NCBI GenBank assembly: GCA_964248365.1
Contig: CAXTYC010000020.1
Coordinates: forward strand, 30,490-89,245
Length of the DNA stretch: 58,756 nt
Source of the DNA: an uncultured Chroococcidiopsis sp.
GTDB taxonomy: Bacteria > Cyanobacteriota > Cyanobacteriia > Cyanobacteriales > Chroococcidiopsidaceae
Direction of reading: 5' to 3'
Made by a program: the position numbers. This document shows, piece after piece, positions 51,001 to 56,593 of this stretch (position 1 is its first letter; each line of letters begins with the position of its first letter).

Positions 51001-54000
51001 TTACCTTTGGTGATTATACCTTCAGTAATTAGATGGGGCATTGGCATTTGATATTGACCGCCATCCACACCACCACCAGCAGAGCCAATTTCTGTATTAT
51101 CCCGCATTGAACCCCAAGAAGCTTGCTTGGAAAGTTCAACATCAGTCATGCCATACTTGGCAAAGAAGCCTTTTTCTTTAGCAATAATAAAGGGAGCAGA
51201 TTCTACGATAGGAATATATCCCAGCTTCACCCTAGTGGTTTCTGGTTTTTGCTCGGGACTCTGGTTATTAGTAGAAACCTGCGTAGCTGTAACGTTGTTT
51301 CCGCCCCCTGTCGGAGGATTTCCCACACATCCTTTGAGCAATACCGAACCAACAGCAGATGCACCAGCAGTTAATATAAATCTCCTACGAGAAAATTGAT
51401 TTAAACCTTCGCTCATAAAATCCTCTGTTGGCTTATTACAATTTTTTAACCATGCGAATATTGGCAACGGAACAGCTATGTTCCTTGCTATATCAATGCA
51501 GACACAACTTTATAAATCGTGTGTTTTTATCGGCAATCTATAATGAACATAGTTGTGGTTGTTAAAGACCGATTTTGATGAAAATGCTCCTCCAGCTAGA
51601 TGAACTGAAGTGGCGGGAACAACCAAAATTACTCTTGTGTAAATAAGCTTACAGCTTTTGAAGTAAAATTTGTTAACTTAGTACCTGTTATTCTTAAATA
51701 AATATTAAATTGTTTTTATAAGTAAAAGTTTATAGATAGTCTCTAAAACCGTTTAATAAGCGTATTCTATAAATCAAATTTGATATAAGTTATCGAGTAT
51801 TATCTCTATAAAACTCAGTATAAATACTATTTGACTTGCACAAAGCAATTAAATATAGAAAATTATCTATGTTATATATAAATTTGTTTTATAGATATCT
51901 ATTTCCGCTAGCTCTATTTATTTAAATTAAACTTATAGTAACCATTAGTGATTATCTATAGATAATTGTAGCTAGTTTCTACAGTAATCTGCGCTTTAGA
52001 ATTTAGAGAATCTCAACAATTCCTAACTGACCATTAATCCGCACCCGTTGACCATCTCGCAACAACTGGGTAGCGTTGTGGATATCCATCACAGCAGGAA
52101 TACCATATTCCCGCGCCACGATCGCACCGTGAGAAAGCCTTCCTCCCACCTCTGCAATCAATCCCCCCGCCCTTGACAATATTGGAGCCCAACCAGAATC
52201 GGTATAAGGCACAACTAAAATCGTCTTGGAGTCAATTTCTGACAGCAATTGCCAACTTGTTAGCACCTTCACCCGTCCCTCTACTATTCCAAGGCTGGCT
52301 CCGATACCTTGCAAGATGGAAGCTGGGGGAGCTGGGGAGGCTGGGGAGGCTGGGGGAGCTGGGGGAGTATTGCCGTAGACTAAGGGGGGTACTGAAAGGA
52401 GTTGACGATCTTGTTCGAGTTGGGATCGGCTTGCTTCCACCCTTCGCCTCAACTGATGCACTAACTCCAAATCAGATCCATCAACAACCCGACGAACTTC
52501 ATCCTCCTCCAAAAAGAAAATATCACCAGTCTCAGACAACAGACGCTCCTGCAACCATTTCTCCTCCAACACCACAAAACACCACCGCAACTGCGCCAAC
52601 AGACGAGAATAAACCTCAGTCACCCGCCCCTTCAAATCCACTCTCCCCTGAACAGCTCCTCCCCTCCTCTTACCTTTGCGCTCTTTGCTTCCCTGGGGTT
52701 TAAACCCCAGGCTATGCGGTTTAAACCCCAGGCTATGCGGTTGATTTCCCTCCCTAACCAAATGCACAAAAACTTCCCTAACCACCTGCGGCTCTTCCTT
52801 CCAAGTAGGAACAGCAATATCAGTCCCCACCTCACTCAAATACCCATAAAGCTCAAGCAACTGCTCAAACTGGCTAATAATCTTCCTACCTTGCTCACTT
52901 TCGCCCAGCTGCTCAAACACCCCATTTTGCCCTGATGGAGACACTACCTGACGAGCTTGATGTGCCAGAGTTGCGATCGCATTCATTGCCTCCACCTCTG
53001 GCGTTCGACTATTATCGATTTGTGTATCCTTTACCCGAAAAATTGCCCCCCGTAACGAAGCACTCAAGGGAGCCATAATACTGTAATAAGTTGCCCGCTT
53101 GAGCAACTCTAAAATCAAGTCCACCCGTGCTAATAACTGTGCGCTTGAGAGATTTTCAACTGCTTGCTCACTCAACAAAGACAAGCCAGGAGCAAAATGC
53201 TGCTTTTCATCTCGCTGAAAATCCCTTTCTAAACTCAATTCTCTACCCAGCAATCTCAACAACCCAGGCACATTCCTTAAAGTAGAACTCAAGGGCGGCT
53301 TACTAAATGAGGCTCCCCTAGTTAAAAACTCCAAACTTTCCGCAGGCAAACCCATCAGCCTAAAAATCTGTCCTAAGAGGGAGGCATTAAAATAAGCACG
53401 GGAGTAATGTAATGTCGCTGTTTGATTAAAATCTAAACTAGCAGCACGTTTGCCCAAAACGAGGGTAAAAATTTCACCCCAAACCCCACACGTCAAAGGG
53501 CGATTGATTGACCACGTTAAGGGGCGAATCAGACCAGGAATCACTTCGGCGGCAATTTTGCGCGTCCAAATGGGCAGTAGGGTAGTAATCGGACGGGATT
53601 GCAATAGCCATAAATTTTGACCGTCGTAGCTCCACTCAATATCCTGGGGAACGCCATGAAAGCGATTTTCTAGGTTTCGCGCTAGTAACGCAACTTGCTT
53701 AATTAATGCTGGTGGTACGTCTCCCTCTCCTTCGATTTGTAGAGACGTGTCGTTACCCTTGATTTGTAGAGAGGCAAAATTTTGCGGCTCTACATTATTG
53801 TCGGTTAATGTTACAACCACGCGATACTGTTCAGGTGTCACCTCTCCTGAAACTACTTGCTTCGCATCTCCTGGTAATGCTTCAATTACAACAGCATCAG
53901 ATGGCAGGGCGATCGGATCGCGGCTAAAGGCAACTCCAGAAAATACGCCTTGGACTTGTTTTTGAATTAGCACAGCCATTGCGTCTTCGGGTAAACCGCG

Positions 54001-56593
54001 TTCACGCCGATATAGCACAACAGTTGGGTTGTCGTAGGAAGCTTGAATACGGGCGATCGCCCCGCGTAACATCTCTCGACTAGTAACATTCAAAACTGTT
54101 TCGTACTGTCCCGCAGCCGAAGCTTGTTCCGAATCTTCCCCCACTGCTGAAGAACGGACTACGAGTGGTTCTGCTTGTGATGGTTGCAGAAAGTTAATTA
54201 AAGGTTCTGCGTCATCTCCTGGGGGAAGTACCCATCCCATTGGAACAGGGTAGCCCCATTGCTTTAACCGAGATAGAGTTGCAGCCTTTTGACCAACTTT
54301 ACTTGCATCGAGTTGGCGATCAAGAGAGACGATCGCTTTATCACCACGAAAAAAGCGAAACATTGTTTGAGATTCTGCCACGACGGCTTTTGGTGGAAGA
54401 TCTAAGTCATCGGGAATTTTTTTGTAAATCCAGCCAATCAATACAGCCAGAGCGATCGCCGCTCCAATTCGGGCTGAATCTTCAGCGTGTAATAATGCTG
54501 TGATTAAGGGAAACAAAATTAAAACTCCGACTCGTCCTAGTTCCCTTTCTCGCAGAATAGTAAAACTAATTGAGCCAATCAAAAATACTAATCCAGCTAC
54601 CCGCCAATCATGAACTACATAGCCCCAAACAACATTAGTGGTTCCTGCGCCTTTGCCCATCCAATAACGACCCATTACCAAGGCAATCAGGGCAATCAAC
54701 TCCCAAGCCGAACCAGGTGGGAAAAATACACGCGCAAGCATAACAGCTGCAATTCCTTTCAAAGCTTCTGACACAACTGCCAGAATTCCCGCTAATTTAC
54801 CCCCATGATAAAAAGCGGCTGAGACACTGATATTACCAGTACCCAACTGTTCTAATTTCCGCCCACTTAGTGCGTAGGTAATCGGGGATATTAGCGGTAG
54901 CCCGCCCAAAAGAGGGCAGATGATGAAAATAGTGAGTACACCCCAAACTTGCAGCATTTGACTTAAGAAGAGGAGCTAGGGGCTAGGGGCAAGAATTGAG
55001 CTAAGGAAGCTAAAGGAAGCCAAAGGGAGAATTACGCGCTTGCGTGATTGCCGAATTCTTCCCCTAGTCCCTAGTCTCTAGCCCCTAGTTCCTTTAATTA
55101 ACTATGTAGGCTGCTCGCAGCGCCCAAATGATCAGAACAGCGATCGAACCCAACAGCAGCACAGTTGATATAGTAACTGCTTTTGGGCTATCGGCTCCCT
55201 CAAATTTCATGATTCCACGATTTAAGTCGGACATACCTTGTGTAAATCCTCCTTTGTAAGAGTGTTACTGTATCCGTTTTGATTTTAGTCCTTCCACTCA
55301 ATAAGTTGGAAAACTTATAATCTATTATTCTGGTTTTATGCTAAAGCTAATCGAGTTCTCGCCGAATCTAGAGCAAGATAGATAATATCGTTGAGCGAAT
55401 TTAACACTCAACTTTGAAGTCAAAAAATTCTGACAACCGCCCCTTGTGACGATAGGGTTATTGAATATTGCTGTAGCAAAATATACTAATATAGTGTTTT
55501 TCTAAATCAAAGGTTTTTTAAATTCATTAGGAGAAGGGGGGATCGCCTCTTGTTCCTATTCTCATTTGCCAGGTGCAGCATTAATTAAGTAAATCATTGC
55601 TGTATACTGCTGTGAGTGAGAATTGTTTCGCTGCAACCAATATCATGTCACCAATTTCCTCGGCTTATGCTTTAAGCGTACATCCCTCTCAAGTAGTAAT
55701 TTAGAGGCAAAAAGTTACTTAATTTTTTCCTAGAATAGAAATATCTAGAATTAAATACTCATCACCAATTAGGTGCAAGGCTCAAGTACCCAGCATCTGT
55801 AAATTGTGCAAACTAGCGTAAAGTCCCCCTACCTCTAGCAGCTCCTCATGAGTGCCTGATTCTATCAATTGACCCCGCTTTAATACTAGAATGCGGTCTA
55901 CATTGCGGATAGTAGACAAGCGGTGAGCAATAATAATCGCTGTGCGTCCTGCAAGTAGGTGTTCTAGCGCATCCTGAATCAAAGCTTCTGTTCCCACATC
56001 TAGACTAGCTGTTGCCTCATCCAACACCAAAATGCTTGGATCTCGAATAGCAGCACGAGCAAACGCCAAAAGTTGCTTTTGACCGCTAGAAAGGTTTGTG
56101 CCTCGCTCTCGTAATTGGGTATCGTAACCTTGGGGTAACTGTTCAATAAAAGAAGCAACATTGGTTTTTTGTGCTGCTGCCTGAATTTGAGCGGGAGAAT
56201 AAGTATCTCCTAAAGTAATATTACTTTTCACATCTCCGGCAAACAAAAAGCCCTCTTGCAGAATTACACCCATGTGAGATCGTAGCTCTGACTGCGGCAC
56301 GTCTCGAATATCTTTCCCATCTATTAATATCCGCCCTCGGCTTGGGTCGTATAGACGGCACAACAACCGAATAATGGAACTTTTACCAGCACCAGTAGGA
56401 CCTACTAAGGCAACTTTTTCACCAGGATGAATCGTAAAATCTAAGTCTTTAATTACGTAATCATCGTCTTTATAGGCAAACCAGACGTGTTCAAAGCGAA
56501 TTTCTCCTGCTAAAGAGGTGTGAATTGGTAGTTGGTAATTGGTAGTTGGTAATTGGTAGTTGGTAATTGTCTCCCTTGTTACCTTGTCTCCAG

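Follow-up and report, generated by a model that had tools for sequence, protein, structure and literature searches.

The joining of a membrane domain resembling the acyltransferase PlsY to a complete kinase of the rifampin phosphotransferase (RPH)/PEP-synthase type, in one cyanobacterial gene, raises the question of what the two halves do together. The gene lies in a stretch of 58,756 nucleotides (hereafter the window) from an uncultured Chroococcidiopsis sp., and its product (hereafter P0001) was taken in a first-pass annotation for a lipid kinase-transferase that feeds fatty acids into lipids independently of PlsX. Ordinary PlsX (424.5 bits) and a canonical PlsY (223 aa, 182.7 bits) are encoded elsewhere in the same genome, as that annotation had noted, together with one true PpsA-size protein and one more PPDK_N protein. 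A literature search found no paper on the fusion, in line with the earlier remark that it has no studied member. The analysis presented here suggests that the protein probably phosphorylates a membrane lipid rather than performing the usual task of PlsY.

Domain organisation

The features of the gene are given in Table 1. The reading frame is open and full-length in 119 close homologues, and PF02660, PF01326 and PF00391 occur together in 119 of the best 120 matches of the homologue search (63-100% identity), the single exception being a partial record of 851 aa. Pfam searches with P0001 placed G3P_acyltransf at residues 13-177 (E 7.8e-18; 65.5 bits, cut-off 24.1), PPDK_N at 261-460 (profile positions 99-312 only) and PEP-utilizers at 909-979; the central domain is without a match to any model in the Pfam copy searched. 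The AlphaFold2 model (pLDDT 84.2, pTM 0.71) was aligned by Foldseek to RPH over approximately 900 columns (E 1.2e-29). The fusion of a PlsY-like domain with a three-part kinase is thus confirmed by the single reading frame, by Pfam and by the predicted structure.

Table 1. Features of the fusion gene and its upstream region (positions within the window)
Feature	Position	Strand	Evidence or remark
Whole ORF (P0001), 984 aa and stop	52003..54957	-	ATG start
PlsY-fold membrane domain, aa 1-185, seven long helices	54403..54957	-	Pfam PF02660, Foldseek, profile, hhalign
Linker, aa 186-215, opening with conserved acidic IPDDLDL motif	54313..54402	-	pLDDT <50 at aa 189-207
ATP-grasp (nucleotide) domain, aa 216-465	53563..54312	-	PPDK_N, E 3.2e-43
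Helical central domain, aa 466-880, counterpart of RPH rifampin-binding domain	52318..53562	-	Foldseek to RPH
Swivelling phospho-histidine domain, aa 881-984	52006..52317	-	PEP-utilizers, E 1.1e-21
His943 codon, predicted phospho-carrier	52129..52131	-	Aligned to RPH His825
46-aa single-helix ORF, 140 nt upstream of the fusion gene	55094..55234	-	Same strand

Kinase half

RPH of Listeria (RPH-Lm; 5fbs, 5hv1) is the best match by fold and, among solved relatives, by sequence (5fbs, E 1.4e-52, stretches 263-463 and 798-984), and P0001 shares with it and with other small-molecule dikinases the order of an ATP-grasp domain, a helical substrate domain and a C-terminal swivelling His domain. Residues K224, R268, T287, E441, Q453 and R455 align with K22, R117, T136, E297, Q309 and R311 of RPH; the equivalents of K22, R117, T136 (as T or S), E297 and H825 are retained in all 119 orthologues, and S942 and H943 are invariant in 119/119 close and 9/9 distant fused proteins. 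Judged by sequence, the ATP-grasp and His943 domains have every residue required for converting ATP to AMP, Pi and a phospho-histidine, with the beta-phosphate passing onto the histidine. The kinase looks catalytically competent, and the kinase part of the earlier reading is supported to that extent.

Compared with RPH, the fusion protein adds the 185-aa membrane domain in front and, in the profile alignment, has a shorter ATP-grasp domain, some 60 residues being missing near the start, in the first subdomain. The same alignment places RPH R666/E667 at K776/G777. The basic acceptor-site residue K776 is retained in 118 of the 119 orthologues, so that the central domain, rather than the PlsY-like pocket, may be where phosphoryl transfer occurs, as it is in RPH; in place of the partner glutamate, the window's clade has Gly in 119/119, which implies that an RPH-like acceptor site is likewise altered. 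Identity as an RPH was rejected, since P0001 scores 229 bits against an equivalog cut-off of 999.

PlsY-like membrane domain

The N-terminal part superposes on PlsY of Aquifex (5xj5-5xj8) with target-normalised TM scores of 0.72-0.76 and rmsd of 2.6-3.0 A over 180-181 columns, profile A1 matches 5xj5 with E 3.4e-13, and hhalign pairs the domain with the genome's own PlsY (Prob 97.3). The likeness to Aquifex PlsY (5xj5-5xj9) extends to a fold of seven helices, to the opening of motif 1 (G-[ST]-G-N), to a D/E-x-x-K-G motif in helix 2 and a glycine-rich loop past helix 3. The C-terminus of PlsY is cytoplasmic, as a fusion to a C-terminal cytoplasmic kinase requires.

The first-pass annotation had feared that this part might be a mere membrane anchor. 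An anchor or scaffold for a kinase with a soluble substrate is the least probable of the explanations considered here, even though the low-confidence linker (aa 189-207) and the loss of canonical PlsY substrate residues would fit it. The conservation of the domain ranks with the highest in the protein (orthologues average 78% identity to P0001 here, against 70% in the ATP-grasp, 62% in the central and 80% in the swivel domain), and 56 of its 185 positions are invariant. Many of these are polar or charged residues in the membrane, and they include T40, N42, S63, E64, K67, E86, R97, Y98, T107, N108, H116, T133, R136, D183 and D184 (P0001 numbering). The conservation of such residues to the degree seen in the catalytic parts argues against a mere anchor, as do the persistence of the same fold in 53 further loci, where a gene of its own near the kinase encodes it, and the retention of N37 (PlsY numbering), of the E/D-x-x-K motif and of the Gly-rich loop in proteins ranging from cyanobacteria to archaea whose overall identity is about 25%.

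The domain has lost the clamp that binds glycerol-3-phosphate (G3P) in PlsY. Residue roles, including N37 as the proposed oxyanion residue and the side chains of that clamp, were taken from the cited parts of PMC5700162. G36 and a glycine-rich 'phosphate hole' loop are kept. Across 19 fused proteins, S/T35 (19/19) and N37 (18/19) are kept as well, whereas R45, S142 and N180 survive in one protein each and H177 and H92 in none. T41 and N42 of Aquifex PlsY have become Ser and Ala; in the window's clade the H92 position is Arg in 8 of 10 proteins, and the phosphate loop is shorter by 4-5 residues, the K104 position falling in the deletion. The third PlsY motif, which the earlier annotator could not make out by eye, is indeed replaced, an acidic IPDDLDL standing in its place with P182, D183, D184 and L185 invariant in the 119 orthologues. 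S/T35, N37, R45, H92, K104, S142, H177 and N180 are all kept in 12/12 canonical cyanobacterial PlsYs. In the tree, cyanobacterial PlsY stands outside a group (support 95/90) that unites the fused domains from the window's clade with those from the distant clade, which points to an old association. NCBIfam scores of P0001 fall far under the PlsY cut-offs, the only PlsY-type row among the matches listed reaching 26.3 bits against 222.

These observations bear on a self-contained kinase-acyltransferase, which would convert a fatty acid to acyl-phosphate and then transfer the acyl group to glycerol-3-phosphate, yielding lysophosphatidate without PlsX. The PlsY fold is present with PF02660 above its cut-off, S/T35 and N37 are kept, and an S35T PlsY still has 17% activity (Table 2 of PMC5700162). 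Moreover, five fusion-bearing archaeal MAGs show no PlsX match and have PF02660 matches solely in the kinase loci, so that the kinase would be the only conceivable source of acyl-phosphate there. However, five of the six G3P-binding side chains of the solved PlsY are absent from the fused domain, and single substitutions of R45, N180 or H177 nearly abolish PlsY activity, as reported in the same source. The acidic replacement of motif 3 would repel a phosphate ester, and in 19/19 cyanobacterial genomes with a fusion-type PF02660 match a canonical PlsY (150-185 bits) is found alongside. The route proposed earlier is therefore unlikely as written. Its premise that the PlsY-like domain handles acyl-phosphate stands in part, through S/T35, N37 and the Gly-rich loop, and its acyltransferase half is unsupported, the G3P clamp being lost; with H92 replaced and the phosphate loop shortened, even acyl-phosphate binding is not assured.

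Distribution

Presence of the fusion was scored at E<=1e-50 over 201 sampled genomes of the phylum. It was found in 64 of them; almost every family sampled from the window's order has it, as against 0/73 genomes of the small-genome family f25 and 0/49 of f24, f26-f30 and two more. The description 'conserved across cyanobacteria' thus holds only in part, and the view that the named homologues are nearly all cyanobacterial is too narrow for the pairing itself. Among 80 bacterial and archaeal loci outside the cyanobacteria, a PlsY-like gene accompanies the kinase gene in 62. Of these, 9 are fusions; in another 40 the two genes are same-strand neighbours no more than 300 bp apart, and in the remaining 13 the distance is up to 3 kb. 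The PlsY-like gene may stand before or after the kinase gene. The separate PlsY-like proteins of the distant loci match PF02660 with 51.7-80.4 bits. Other membrane domains also occur N-terminally in this kinase family, DUF454 being fused in P0206 and P0241.

Gene neighbourhood

The neighbourhood had been described as giving no clue; lipase genes and cobalamin or chelatase genes nevertheless recur near the fusion or the pair. Of 61 cyanobacterial loci, 16 have a GDSL lipase/acylhydrolase gene next to the fusion gene, and two unrelated arrangements are seen among them. Other neighbours are PGAP1/LCAT-like hydrolases (L024, L040), DedA/VTT proteins (L022, L071) and a YegS-type lipid kinase, directly downstream in L087 and 7 kb off in the window. 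In 25 of the 61 loci the 46-aa ORF is present on the strand of the fusion gene, 140-780 nt upstream of it, and its product is 79-100% identical in amino acids; no NCBIfam model matches it, and it may be a co-transcribed small membrane partner, its membership being uncertain.

ABC transporter genes recur as well, as MacB/FtsX-type permeases in six distant loci (L024, L026, L041, L058, L060, L062) and as MsbA/HepA-like exporters in the window and L094. The MacB/FtsX-type permeases can be counted among the lipid-flavoured neighbours. The ABC exporters would also suit a detoxifying kinase stationed at the membrane, often with an exporter, to act on a xenobiotic, antibiotic or phenolic that partitions into the bilayer, as would the DUF454 fusions and the nearest characterised relatives, which are described in the cited parts of PMC4844700 and PMC12167813 as inactivating rifamycins or phosphorylating phenolics. 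Such a role is improbable, slightly more so than the kinase-acyltransferase; the constant PlsY-fold partner with its conserved polar active-site residues would be left unexplained, the score lies far under the RPH equivalog cut-off, and the gene behaves like part of the conserved core of one cyanobacterial order, unlike a resistance gene of patchy occurrence.

Of the 61 cyanobacterial loci, 17 have true cobalamin genes at a distance of up to 8 kb, and these loci represent five families and three arrangements. In f5, 11 loci carry cbiG-cobJ or precorrin methylases; another 4, from f6, f3 and f8, carry cbiJ; and in f9 cobS is found 112 bp upstream on the same strand. A protein of 408-424 aa, with N-terminal helices and a CbiX/CfbA/ferrochelatase-like domain, is encoded between or beside the kinase and PlsY-like genes in six distant loci (L023, L034, L040, L062, L084, L070), and HupE/UreJ (L035, L076), a B12-binding radical SAM protein (L078), URO-D (L060) and a bilin reductase (L071) occur near others. 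The substrate of the pair might accordingly be a tetrapyrrole or corrinoid, or the pair might serve cobalt/nickel handling connected with such a compound, for example by converting a side-chain carboxylate to an acyl-phosphate at the membrane for PlsY-type transfer to a new acceptor. This is no likelier than the kinase-acyltransferase. No cobalamin riboswitch was detected at Rfam gathering thresholds in the window, five cyanobacterial loci or eight distant loci; in the window, cobalamin genes are absent up to 10 kb from the fusion, and a search of the window's genome with the query used gave no homologue of the chelatase-like protein. Much of the cyanobacterial signal is synteny common to one family, and the fusion is missing from the 73 small-genome cyanobacteria, which make pseudocobalamin.

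Comparison with known systems and proposed function

Kinases of the same superfamily include HpeHI, CreHI and the phenylphosphate synthase PpsAB, whose domains can be split over several polypeptides and whose substrates are small hydrophobic hydroxyl compounds, phenolics in the case of HpeHI (cited parts of PMC12167813); HpeI (9goj) matches P0001 in fold and sequence. Those enzymes are soluble and have no membrane partner, whereas the fusion keeps ATP-grasp and His on one chain and has the PlsY-like part as its variable partner. The prodigiosin ligases PigC/RedH share the three-domain architecture and, according to the HapC abstract, use a phosphorylated intermediate for condensation rather than releasing it; P0001 reaches 199 bits, far below their cut-offs of 1300-1350, and no pigment cluster lies nearby. 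FakA/FakB of Firmicutes, a pair that converts free fatty acid to acyl-phosphate for PlsY (abstracts of PMC9136124 and PMC10146087), is an analogy and not a homologue. Fak combines a soluble Dak-type kinase with a DegV-type fatty-acid binding protein and releases ADP; the fusion would be a membrane dikinase releasing AMP and Pi, with acyl-phosphate as its putative product.

The explanation preferred here, tentatively and at somewhat less than an even chance, is a membrane-integral lipid dikinase of the RPH/PEP-synthase type, the favoured candidate reaction being the phosphorylation of a fatty acid to give acyl-phosphate; on this reading, the protein would not be a canonical acyltransferase. The beta-phosphate of ATP would be transferred to His943 with release of AMP and Pi, and the PlsY-like domain would hold a lipid embedded in the bilayer, the head group of which either accepts the phosphate from His943 or already bears it. 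It is this putative role as a lipid-holding phosphate site that would make the enzyme a lipid dikinase. The intact kinase, the constrained PlsY fold, the pairing beyond the fusion, the old association, the coexistence with PlsY, the lipid-flavoured neighbours and the chemistry of kinase relatives speak for such an enzyme; the kept K776, the replaced H92, the shortened loop and the cobalamin and chelatase neighbours speak against it. Known relatives of the kinase, such as RPH with rifampin (PMC4844700) and HpeHI with phenolics (PMC12167813), place phosphate on a hydroxyl or enol group of a small hydrophobic compound. The most economical substrate would be a free fatty acid, phosphorylated within the membrane. 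Against a fatty acid stands acyl-ACP synthetase, with which cyanobacteria already have a means of recycling fatty acids. The acyl-phosphate formed by such a lipid dikinase could then be used by the ordinary PlsY or by another acceptor, and the kinase and its PlsY-like partner, fused or encoded side by side, would work as a single unit in many other bacteria and archaea.

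The fusion gene and its domains

The fusion protein, P0001, is encoded in a single open frame, and the coordinates 52003..54957 under which the first-pass annotation had reported it are window coordinates. Its PlsY family domain is followed by an ATP-grasp domain, a helical central domain and a swivelling His domain. The PF02660 score of the fusion was 70.2 bits in a genome-wide scan; elsewhere in the genome are an ordinary PlsY (223 aa, 182.7 bits by Pfam), a PlsX (424.5 bits), a PpsA-type gene of 837 aa on a separate contig and one further PPDK_N protein. An AlphaFold2 model of P0001 obtained from a 31-row alignment (pLDDT 84.2, pTM 0.71) matched the Listeria rifampin phosphotransferase (RPH) in Foldseek with an E-value of 1.2e-29. 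The N-terminal part of the model has the seven-helix fold of PlsY, as judged by Foldseek matches to four crystal forms of the Aquifex enzyme (5xj5-5xj8; TM 0.72-0.76, target-normalised; rmsd 2.6-3.0 A over 180-181 columns; 22-23% identity). The domains, the fold and the separate PlsY, PlsX and PpsA genes therefore confirm the original observation of a PlsY-like domain fused to a three-part kinase in a genome with ordinary plsX and plsY. The possibility of two genes joined by an assembly error was rejected, because 119 homologues are full length.

Low confidence in the model is limited to the linker (aa 189-207), a loop (aa 385-403) and two strain-specific repeat insertions (aa 740-758 and 870-877), and both in-gene tandem repeats sit in low-confidence loops. 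The family PF27448 is assigned to most homologues in the precomputed Pfam list, but is absent from the entry of P0001.

Coordinates of the fusion gene, its domains and associated features (aa, residues of P0001; L-numbers, fetched loci; f1, the family of the window)
Feature	Location	Strand	Remarks
Fusion ORF, 984 aa	window 52003..54957	-	ATG start
G3P_acyltransf (PlsY family, PF02660)	aa 13-177		Pfam, 65.5 bits; cut-off 24.1
PPDK_N (ATP-grasp)	aa 261-460		Pfam, E 3.2e-43; profile positions 99-312 only
PEP-utilizers (PF00391, swivelling His domain)	aa 909-979		Pfam, E 1.1e-21
In-frame tandem repeat	window 52321..52367		9 nt x5.2; Pro/Ala/Ser-rich linker ahead of the swivel domain
In-frame tandem repeat	window 52697..52742		21 nt x2.2, 100% matches; HSLGFKP twice (aa 742-755)
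Repeats between 46-aa ORF and fusion	window 54971..55093		AGGGGCT x2.9, CCCTAGT x4.6, a decamer x2.9
46-aa ORF	window 55094..55234	-	one predicted membrane helix; 140 nt upstream of the fusion
YegS/BmrU-type lipid kinase	window 43975..44847	-	NF009604, 470.8 bits; cut-off 274
YegS/BmrU-type kinase, other sampled f1 genome	L087:6030-6914	-	directly downstream of the fusion (90 bp, tblastn)
Group II catalytic intron (RF00029)	window 23996..24074	+	56.9 bits; gathering threshold 40
Guanidine-I riboswitch	L092:1419-1549	-	80.5 bits; related cyanobacterial locus, no connection with the fusion 5.5 kb away
Chelatase-like protein gene	L040:10370-11602	+	also in L023, L034, L062, L084 and L070
Second, free-standing PlsY-like gene (Bathyarchaeia)	L007:5907-6536	-	opposite strand, beside the fused gene; 218 bits with the fused-domain profile, against 228 for the fused copy
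Second, free-standing PlsY-like gene (Bathyarchaeia)	L014:10554-11276	-	opposite strand, beside the fused gene

The kinase half

RPH is also the closest solved relative by sequence (E 1.4e-52). In NCBIfam the kinase part comes nearest to 'PRK06241' PEP-synthase-like subfamilies, to rifamycin phosphotransferase and, at about 199 bits, to the prodigiosin ligases PigC/RedH, and it falls far short of the cut-off in every case. The equivalog for rifamycin-inactivating phosphotransferases (NF041857) is not reached, with 229.3 bits against a cut-off of 999, and xenobiotic detoxification, the role that this kinship might suggest, is considered quite unlikely. The PEP/pyruvate-binding TIM-barrel (PF02896) has no match in P0001 in the Pfam scan, and the protein is therefore not a PEP synthase. 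Identity as a PEP synthase or pyruvate, water dikinase was rejected also on the position of the His domain, C-terminal in P0001 as against central in PEP synthase, and on the score with TIGR01418 (176.5 bits against 739.75).

Residues of the Listeria enzyme (RPH-Lm) tested by mutation, as given in the available text of PMC4844700, were used as the reference set and transferred to P0001 via sequence and profile alignments. Over 119 cyanobacterial-type orthologues, the nucleotide-site residues (T or S at 287) and the His are kept, and in the dyad required for the second transfer the basic residue is kept and the Glu replaced by Gly, which argues that the half-reaction from ATP to His~P is very probably intact, and that the acceptor site, as far as these residues tell, is related to that of RPH, yet altered.

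The kinase family also has further N-terminal fusion partners. Among the proteins P0206, P0241 and P0247, two cluster representatives carry DUF454, a small inner-membrane protein family, ahead of a full three-part kinase, and one representative carries a short-chain dehydrogenase fused to the kinase.

Correspondence of functional residues of RPH-Lm and Aquifex PlsY in the fused proteins (PlsY roles and the RPH dyad from the available text of PMC5700162 and PMC4844700, respectively)
Reference residue	Role	P0001	Occurrence
RPH-Lm K22		K224	K in 119/119 orthologues
RPH-Lm R117		R268	R in 119/119 orthologues
RPH-Lm T136		T287	T 74, S 45 among 119 orthologues
RPH-Lm E297		E441	E in 119/119 orthologues
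RPH-Lm H825		H943	H in 119/119 close and 9/9 distant fused proteins
RPH-Lm R666-E667	required for transfer from His~P to rifampin	K776-G777 (profile alignment)	K 118, R 1 of 119; Gly 119/119; distant fused proteins R/K 9/9, E/D 7/9
PlsY S35	G3P phosphate	T40	S or T in 19/19 fused
PlsY N37	stabilises oxyanion		N in 18/19 fused
PlsY T41	acyl-phosphate		Ser 7, Ala 10 among 19 fused
PlsY R45	G3P phosphate	Y50	kept in 1/19 fused
PlsY H92	acyl-phosphate		kept in 0/19 fused; Arg in 8/10 of the window's clade
PlsY K104	G3P phosphate	gap	kept in 0/10 of the window's clade, 2/9 distant fused
PlsY backbone 104-107 ('phosphate hole')	acyl-phosphate		
PlsY S142	G3P 2-OH		kept in 1/19 fused
PlsY H177	G3P 2-OH	Tyr	kept in 0/19 fused
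PlsY N180	G3P phosphate	I181	kept in 1/19 fused

The PlsY-like half

The membrane domains were compared in an alignment of 12 canonical cyanobacterial PlsYs taken from the matches in a 61-genome sample, one divergent PlsY-like ORF (from locus L084), 19 fused proteins (10 from the window's clade and 9 distant ones) and 12 separately encoded kinase-linked PlsY-like proteins. Columns were assigned by way of the ordinary PlsY of this genome, aligned in turn to 5xj5. The residues S35, T41, N42, R45, H92, G102, G103, K104, S142, H177 and N180 are present in each of the 12 canonical proteins. The clamp for the phosphate of glycerol-3-phosphate (G3P) is not retained in P0001. The Gly-rich loop around K104 is present in the window's clade, 4-5 residues shorter, and motif 3 of PlsY (H-R-x-N) is replaced there by an invariant acidic P-D-D-L. 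A profile-profile check with hhalign gave the same residue correspondences (Prob 97.3, E 1.9e-11). The separately encoded kinase-linked proteins have H92 (12/12) and keep the GG[R]G loop; R45, H177 and N180 are missing from them. On the aligned residues, the PlsY fold and part of the acyl-phosphate side are kept in the fused proteins and the G3P side is gone.

Among the 25 NCBIfam matches listed, the sole PlsY-type model was PRK14416, at 26.3 bits against an equivalog cut-off of 222. A phmmer search of PDB sequences with the single sequence of aa 1-200 missed PlsY, which a profile search finds; in the ESM Atlas, aa 1-190 gave PF02660 clusters alone, at 0.81, which is below the meaningful level.

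Single substitutions of R45, H177 or N180 cost PlsY more than 90% of its activity (PMC5700162, available text). As the G3P side is gone, the membrane domain was therefore not filed as a G3P acyltransferase, a candidate identity rejected also because the equivalog cut-off is not reached. The acyl transfer to G3P envisaged in the first-pass annotation is not supported, R45, S142, H177 and N180 being lost in 18-19 of the 19 fused proteins. The full model proposed there, a self-contained kinase-acyltransferase that would convert fatty acid through acyl-phosphate to lysophosphatidate without PlsX, fits the combination of domains and is judged unlikely, since both the G3P clamp and the residues binding the 2-OH are lost.

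The same annotation had cautioned that the PlsY-like part may be a mere anchor. Mean identity to P0001 over the 119 orthologues is 78% in the membrane domain, 80% in the swivel domain, 70% in the ATP-grasp, 62% in the central domain and 63% in the linker. In the membrane domain, 56 of 185 positions are invariant, including the polar or charged residues T40, N42, S63, E64, K67, E86, R97, Y98, T107, N108, H116, T133, R136, D183 and D184, and N42, E64 and T107 are nearly invariant over the 31-row alignment, which reaches down to 24% identity. This pattern does not resemble the evolution of a passive anchor, and with the membrane domain better conserved than the central domain, a role as anchor only appears very unlikely.

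Distribution and pairing

In the phylum sample, 64 of 201 genomes gave a match at E<=1e-50. Nearly all sampled families of the window's order have the fusion (e.g. f5, 24/24 and f3, 8/8; families and genera are coded f and g, respectively), as have six of nine further families of the class. At this threshold the fusion was absent, within the order, from genus g8 (0/5) and most of g26, and also from the small-genome family f25 (0/73 genomes) and from f24, f26-f30 and two more families (0/49). All 19 genomes with a fusion-type PF02660 match in a 61-genome sample also have a canonical PlsY (150-185 bits); the fusion is thus an addition to PlsY and not its replacement.

In a representative library, fused proteins occur down to 26-33% identity, and these remote members have the higher PlsY scores, 76-90 bits. 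Named genomes, scanned with an alignment of the distant forms, yielded 80 loci, from archaeal MAGs (Bathyarchaeia, Wukongarchaeum, Promethearchaeota, Thor- and Hodarchaeota, Methanobacteriota) and bacterial MAGs (Dehalococcoidales, Anaerolineae and other Chloroflexota, Pirellulales, Thermotogota, Thermodesulfobacteriota, Saccharibacteria, Ignavibacteria, WOR-3), among others. When the loci were classified by HMMs built from the two domain blocks, the PlsY-like ORF was in one open frame with the kinase in 9, directly next to the kinase on its strand, on either side and with a gap of up to 300 bp, in 40 (a class that, at gap 0, may include frameshifted MAG sequence) and within 3 kb on the same strand in 13; it was not found in 18, of which 15 have less than 3 kb of flanking sequence on one or both sides. 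Pfam matches of 51.7-80.4 bits verified PF02660 in those separate proteins that were tested.

A tree was built from the PlsY-type domains, and every one of the four groups makes up one side of a branch in it. The two fused groups cluster together (95/90), apart from cyanobacterial PlsY; the topology is unrooted and its canonical sample cyanobacterial only. Given the fusion, the occurrence of both gene orders and the broad taxonomic range, there is strong reason to regard the PlsY-like protein and the kinase as a working unit.

Gene context

No conserved synteny was observed in the 61 cyanobacterial loci of the neighbourhood sample (the window and 60 fetched), the immediate neighbours differing from family to family. 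In the window, an MsbA/HepA-like ABC exporter lies upstream of the fusion and cmpABCD downstream, followed by psiE and a YegS-type lipid kinase; among the 61 loci, the MsbA-like exporter recurs in 2, cmpA in 5, psiE in 1 and the lipid kinase in 3. Since cmpABCD and psiE stand between the fusion and a kinase that adjoins it in the other sampled f1 genome, the cmp cluster may have been inserted there. Homologues of the 46-aa ORF (79-100% aa identity) precede the fusion by 140-780 nt on its strand in 25 of the 61 loci, in f1 and f5; the ORF itself gave no NCBIfam match. The repeats between this ORF and the fusion resemble the short tandemly repeated heptamers of filamentous cyanobacteria. Pattern scans for promoters and terminators around the gene gave no more sites than shuffled sequences.

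A GDSL lipase/acylhydrolase gene lies 0.4-2.5 kb from the fusion in 16 of the 61 loci: 15 belong to f5, and the remaining one, in f17, encodes a different GDSL type. In 17 loci, true cobalamin genes occur within 8 kb. Those of f5 are cbiG-cobJ and a precorrin methylase (11 loci), f6, f3 and f8 have cbiJ, and in f9 cobS precedes the fusion by 112 bp on its strand. Six distant loci, in Chloroflexota, Ignavibacteria, WOR-3 and Saccharibacteria MAGs, encode a protein of 408-424 aa with N-terminal membrane helices and a CbiX/CfbA/ferrochelatase-like domain (all scores weak: Pfam 24.7-45.8 bits, NCBIfam about 30-35 bits), placed between or beside the kinase and the PlsY-like gene; with that protein as query, no homologue was found in the window's genome. 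Further neighbours in distant loci are MacB/FtsX permeases with ABC ATPases (6 loci), HupE/UreJ with DUF6512 (2), PGAP1/LCAT-like or chlorophyllase/PETase-like hydrolases (2) and DedA/VTT proteins (2). With recurring neighbours of both sorts, the gene context therefore hints at lipids (through lipases, exporters of lipid type and the lipid kinase) and at tetrapyrroles or metals alike. The cobalamin genes and the chelatase-like protein would suit a tetrapyrrole or corrinoid role, which is nevertheless improbable: no cobalamin riboswitch, nor any other, was found upstream at the Rfam gathering thresholds in the window, in loci L087-L089, L091 and L092 or in eight distant loci.

Proposed function and its implications

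Both parent families, PlsY and the dikinases, are well known and their partnership is unstudied; no paper on the fusion or the pair was found in the literature searched, mostly outside subscription journals. Tentatively, we favour a membrane-lipid dikinase with a working PlsY-like site, a proposal that is plausible on the residues retained. The intact relay from ATP to histidine would load His943; the membrane domain would present or receive a bilayer lipid, the head group of which would be phosphorylated by His943, and the acidic motif in place of motif 3 may serve the incoming phospho-histidine or a metal. Conversion of free fatty acid to acyl-phosphate would be the simplest candidate reaction, because the retained residues surround the acyl-phosphate head group in PlsY and lipases are encoded nearby; about half of the likelihood given to the lipid dikinase falls to a fatty acid as its substrate.

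Thousands of records name the fusion 'glycerol-3-phosphate acyltransferase' or 'pyruvate, water dikinase', whereas residue and domain tests indicate neither, and these database names are probably wrong. What the records would describe is a conserved partnership of a PlsY-fold membrane protein with a phospho-histidine dikinase, which most of the sampled cyanobacteria with large genomes have and which occurs, as a fusion or as separate genes, also in Chloroflexota, Thermotogota, Planctomycetota, Bathyarchaeia and Asgard archaea.

The archaeal members bear on the 'lipid divide'. The archaeal PF02660 proteins of the present set belong to kinase loci; they are without the G3P clamp, and no PlsX accompanies them. 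Lipid-gene surveys, in the available text of PMC6431249, count archaeal PlsY homologues, including one from a Thorarchaeote, as bacterial-type lipid genes and doubt their role; the archaeal proteins described here may be among them. In five archaeal MAGs with the fusion, for which completeness is not stated, no PlsX match was found and PF02660 matches occur in kinase loci only. A PlsY-like gene lies near the kinase in 4 of 7 Thorarchaeota loci (adjacent in 3 and 2 kb away in 1), and both aligned Thorarchaeota proteins are without the G3P clamp. The 'PlsY' genes reported from Asgard and further uncultured archaea, which were interpreted as vestiges of bacterial-type lipid synthesis, may belong to a kinase-linked, clamp-less paralogue family. 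Taken jointly with this corollary, the idea of an old two-part machine across the domains of life, which would draw on free lipid and ATP to make acyl-phosphate or another lipid phosphate in the bilayer, is doubtful at present. If true, it would add to PlsX and FakAB a third way of making acyl-phosphate. Should a fatty acid be the substrate, the fusion would give free fatty acids a new way into the synthesis of membrane lipids, of relevance to fatty-acid-secreting cyanobacterial production strains.
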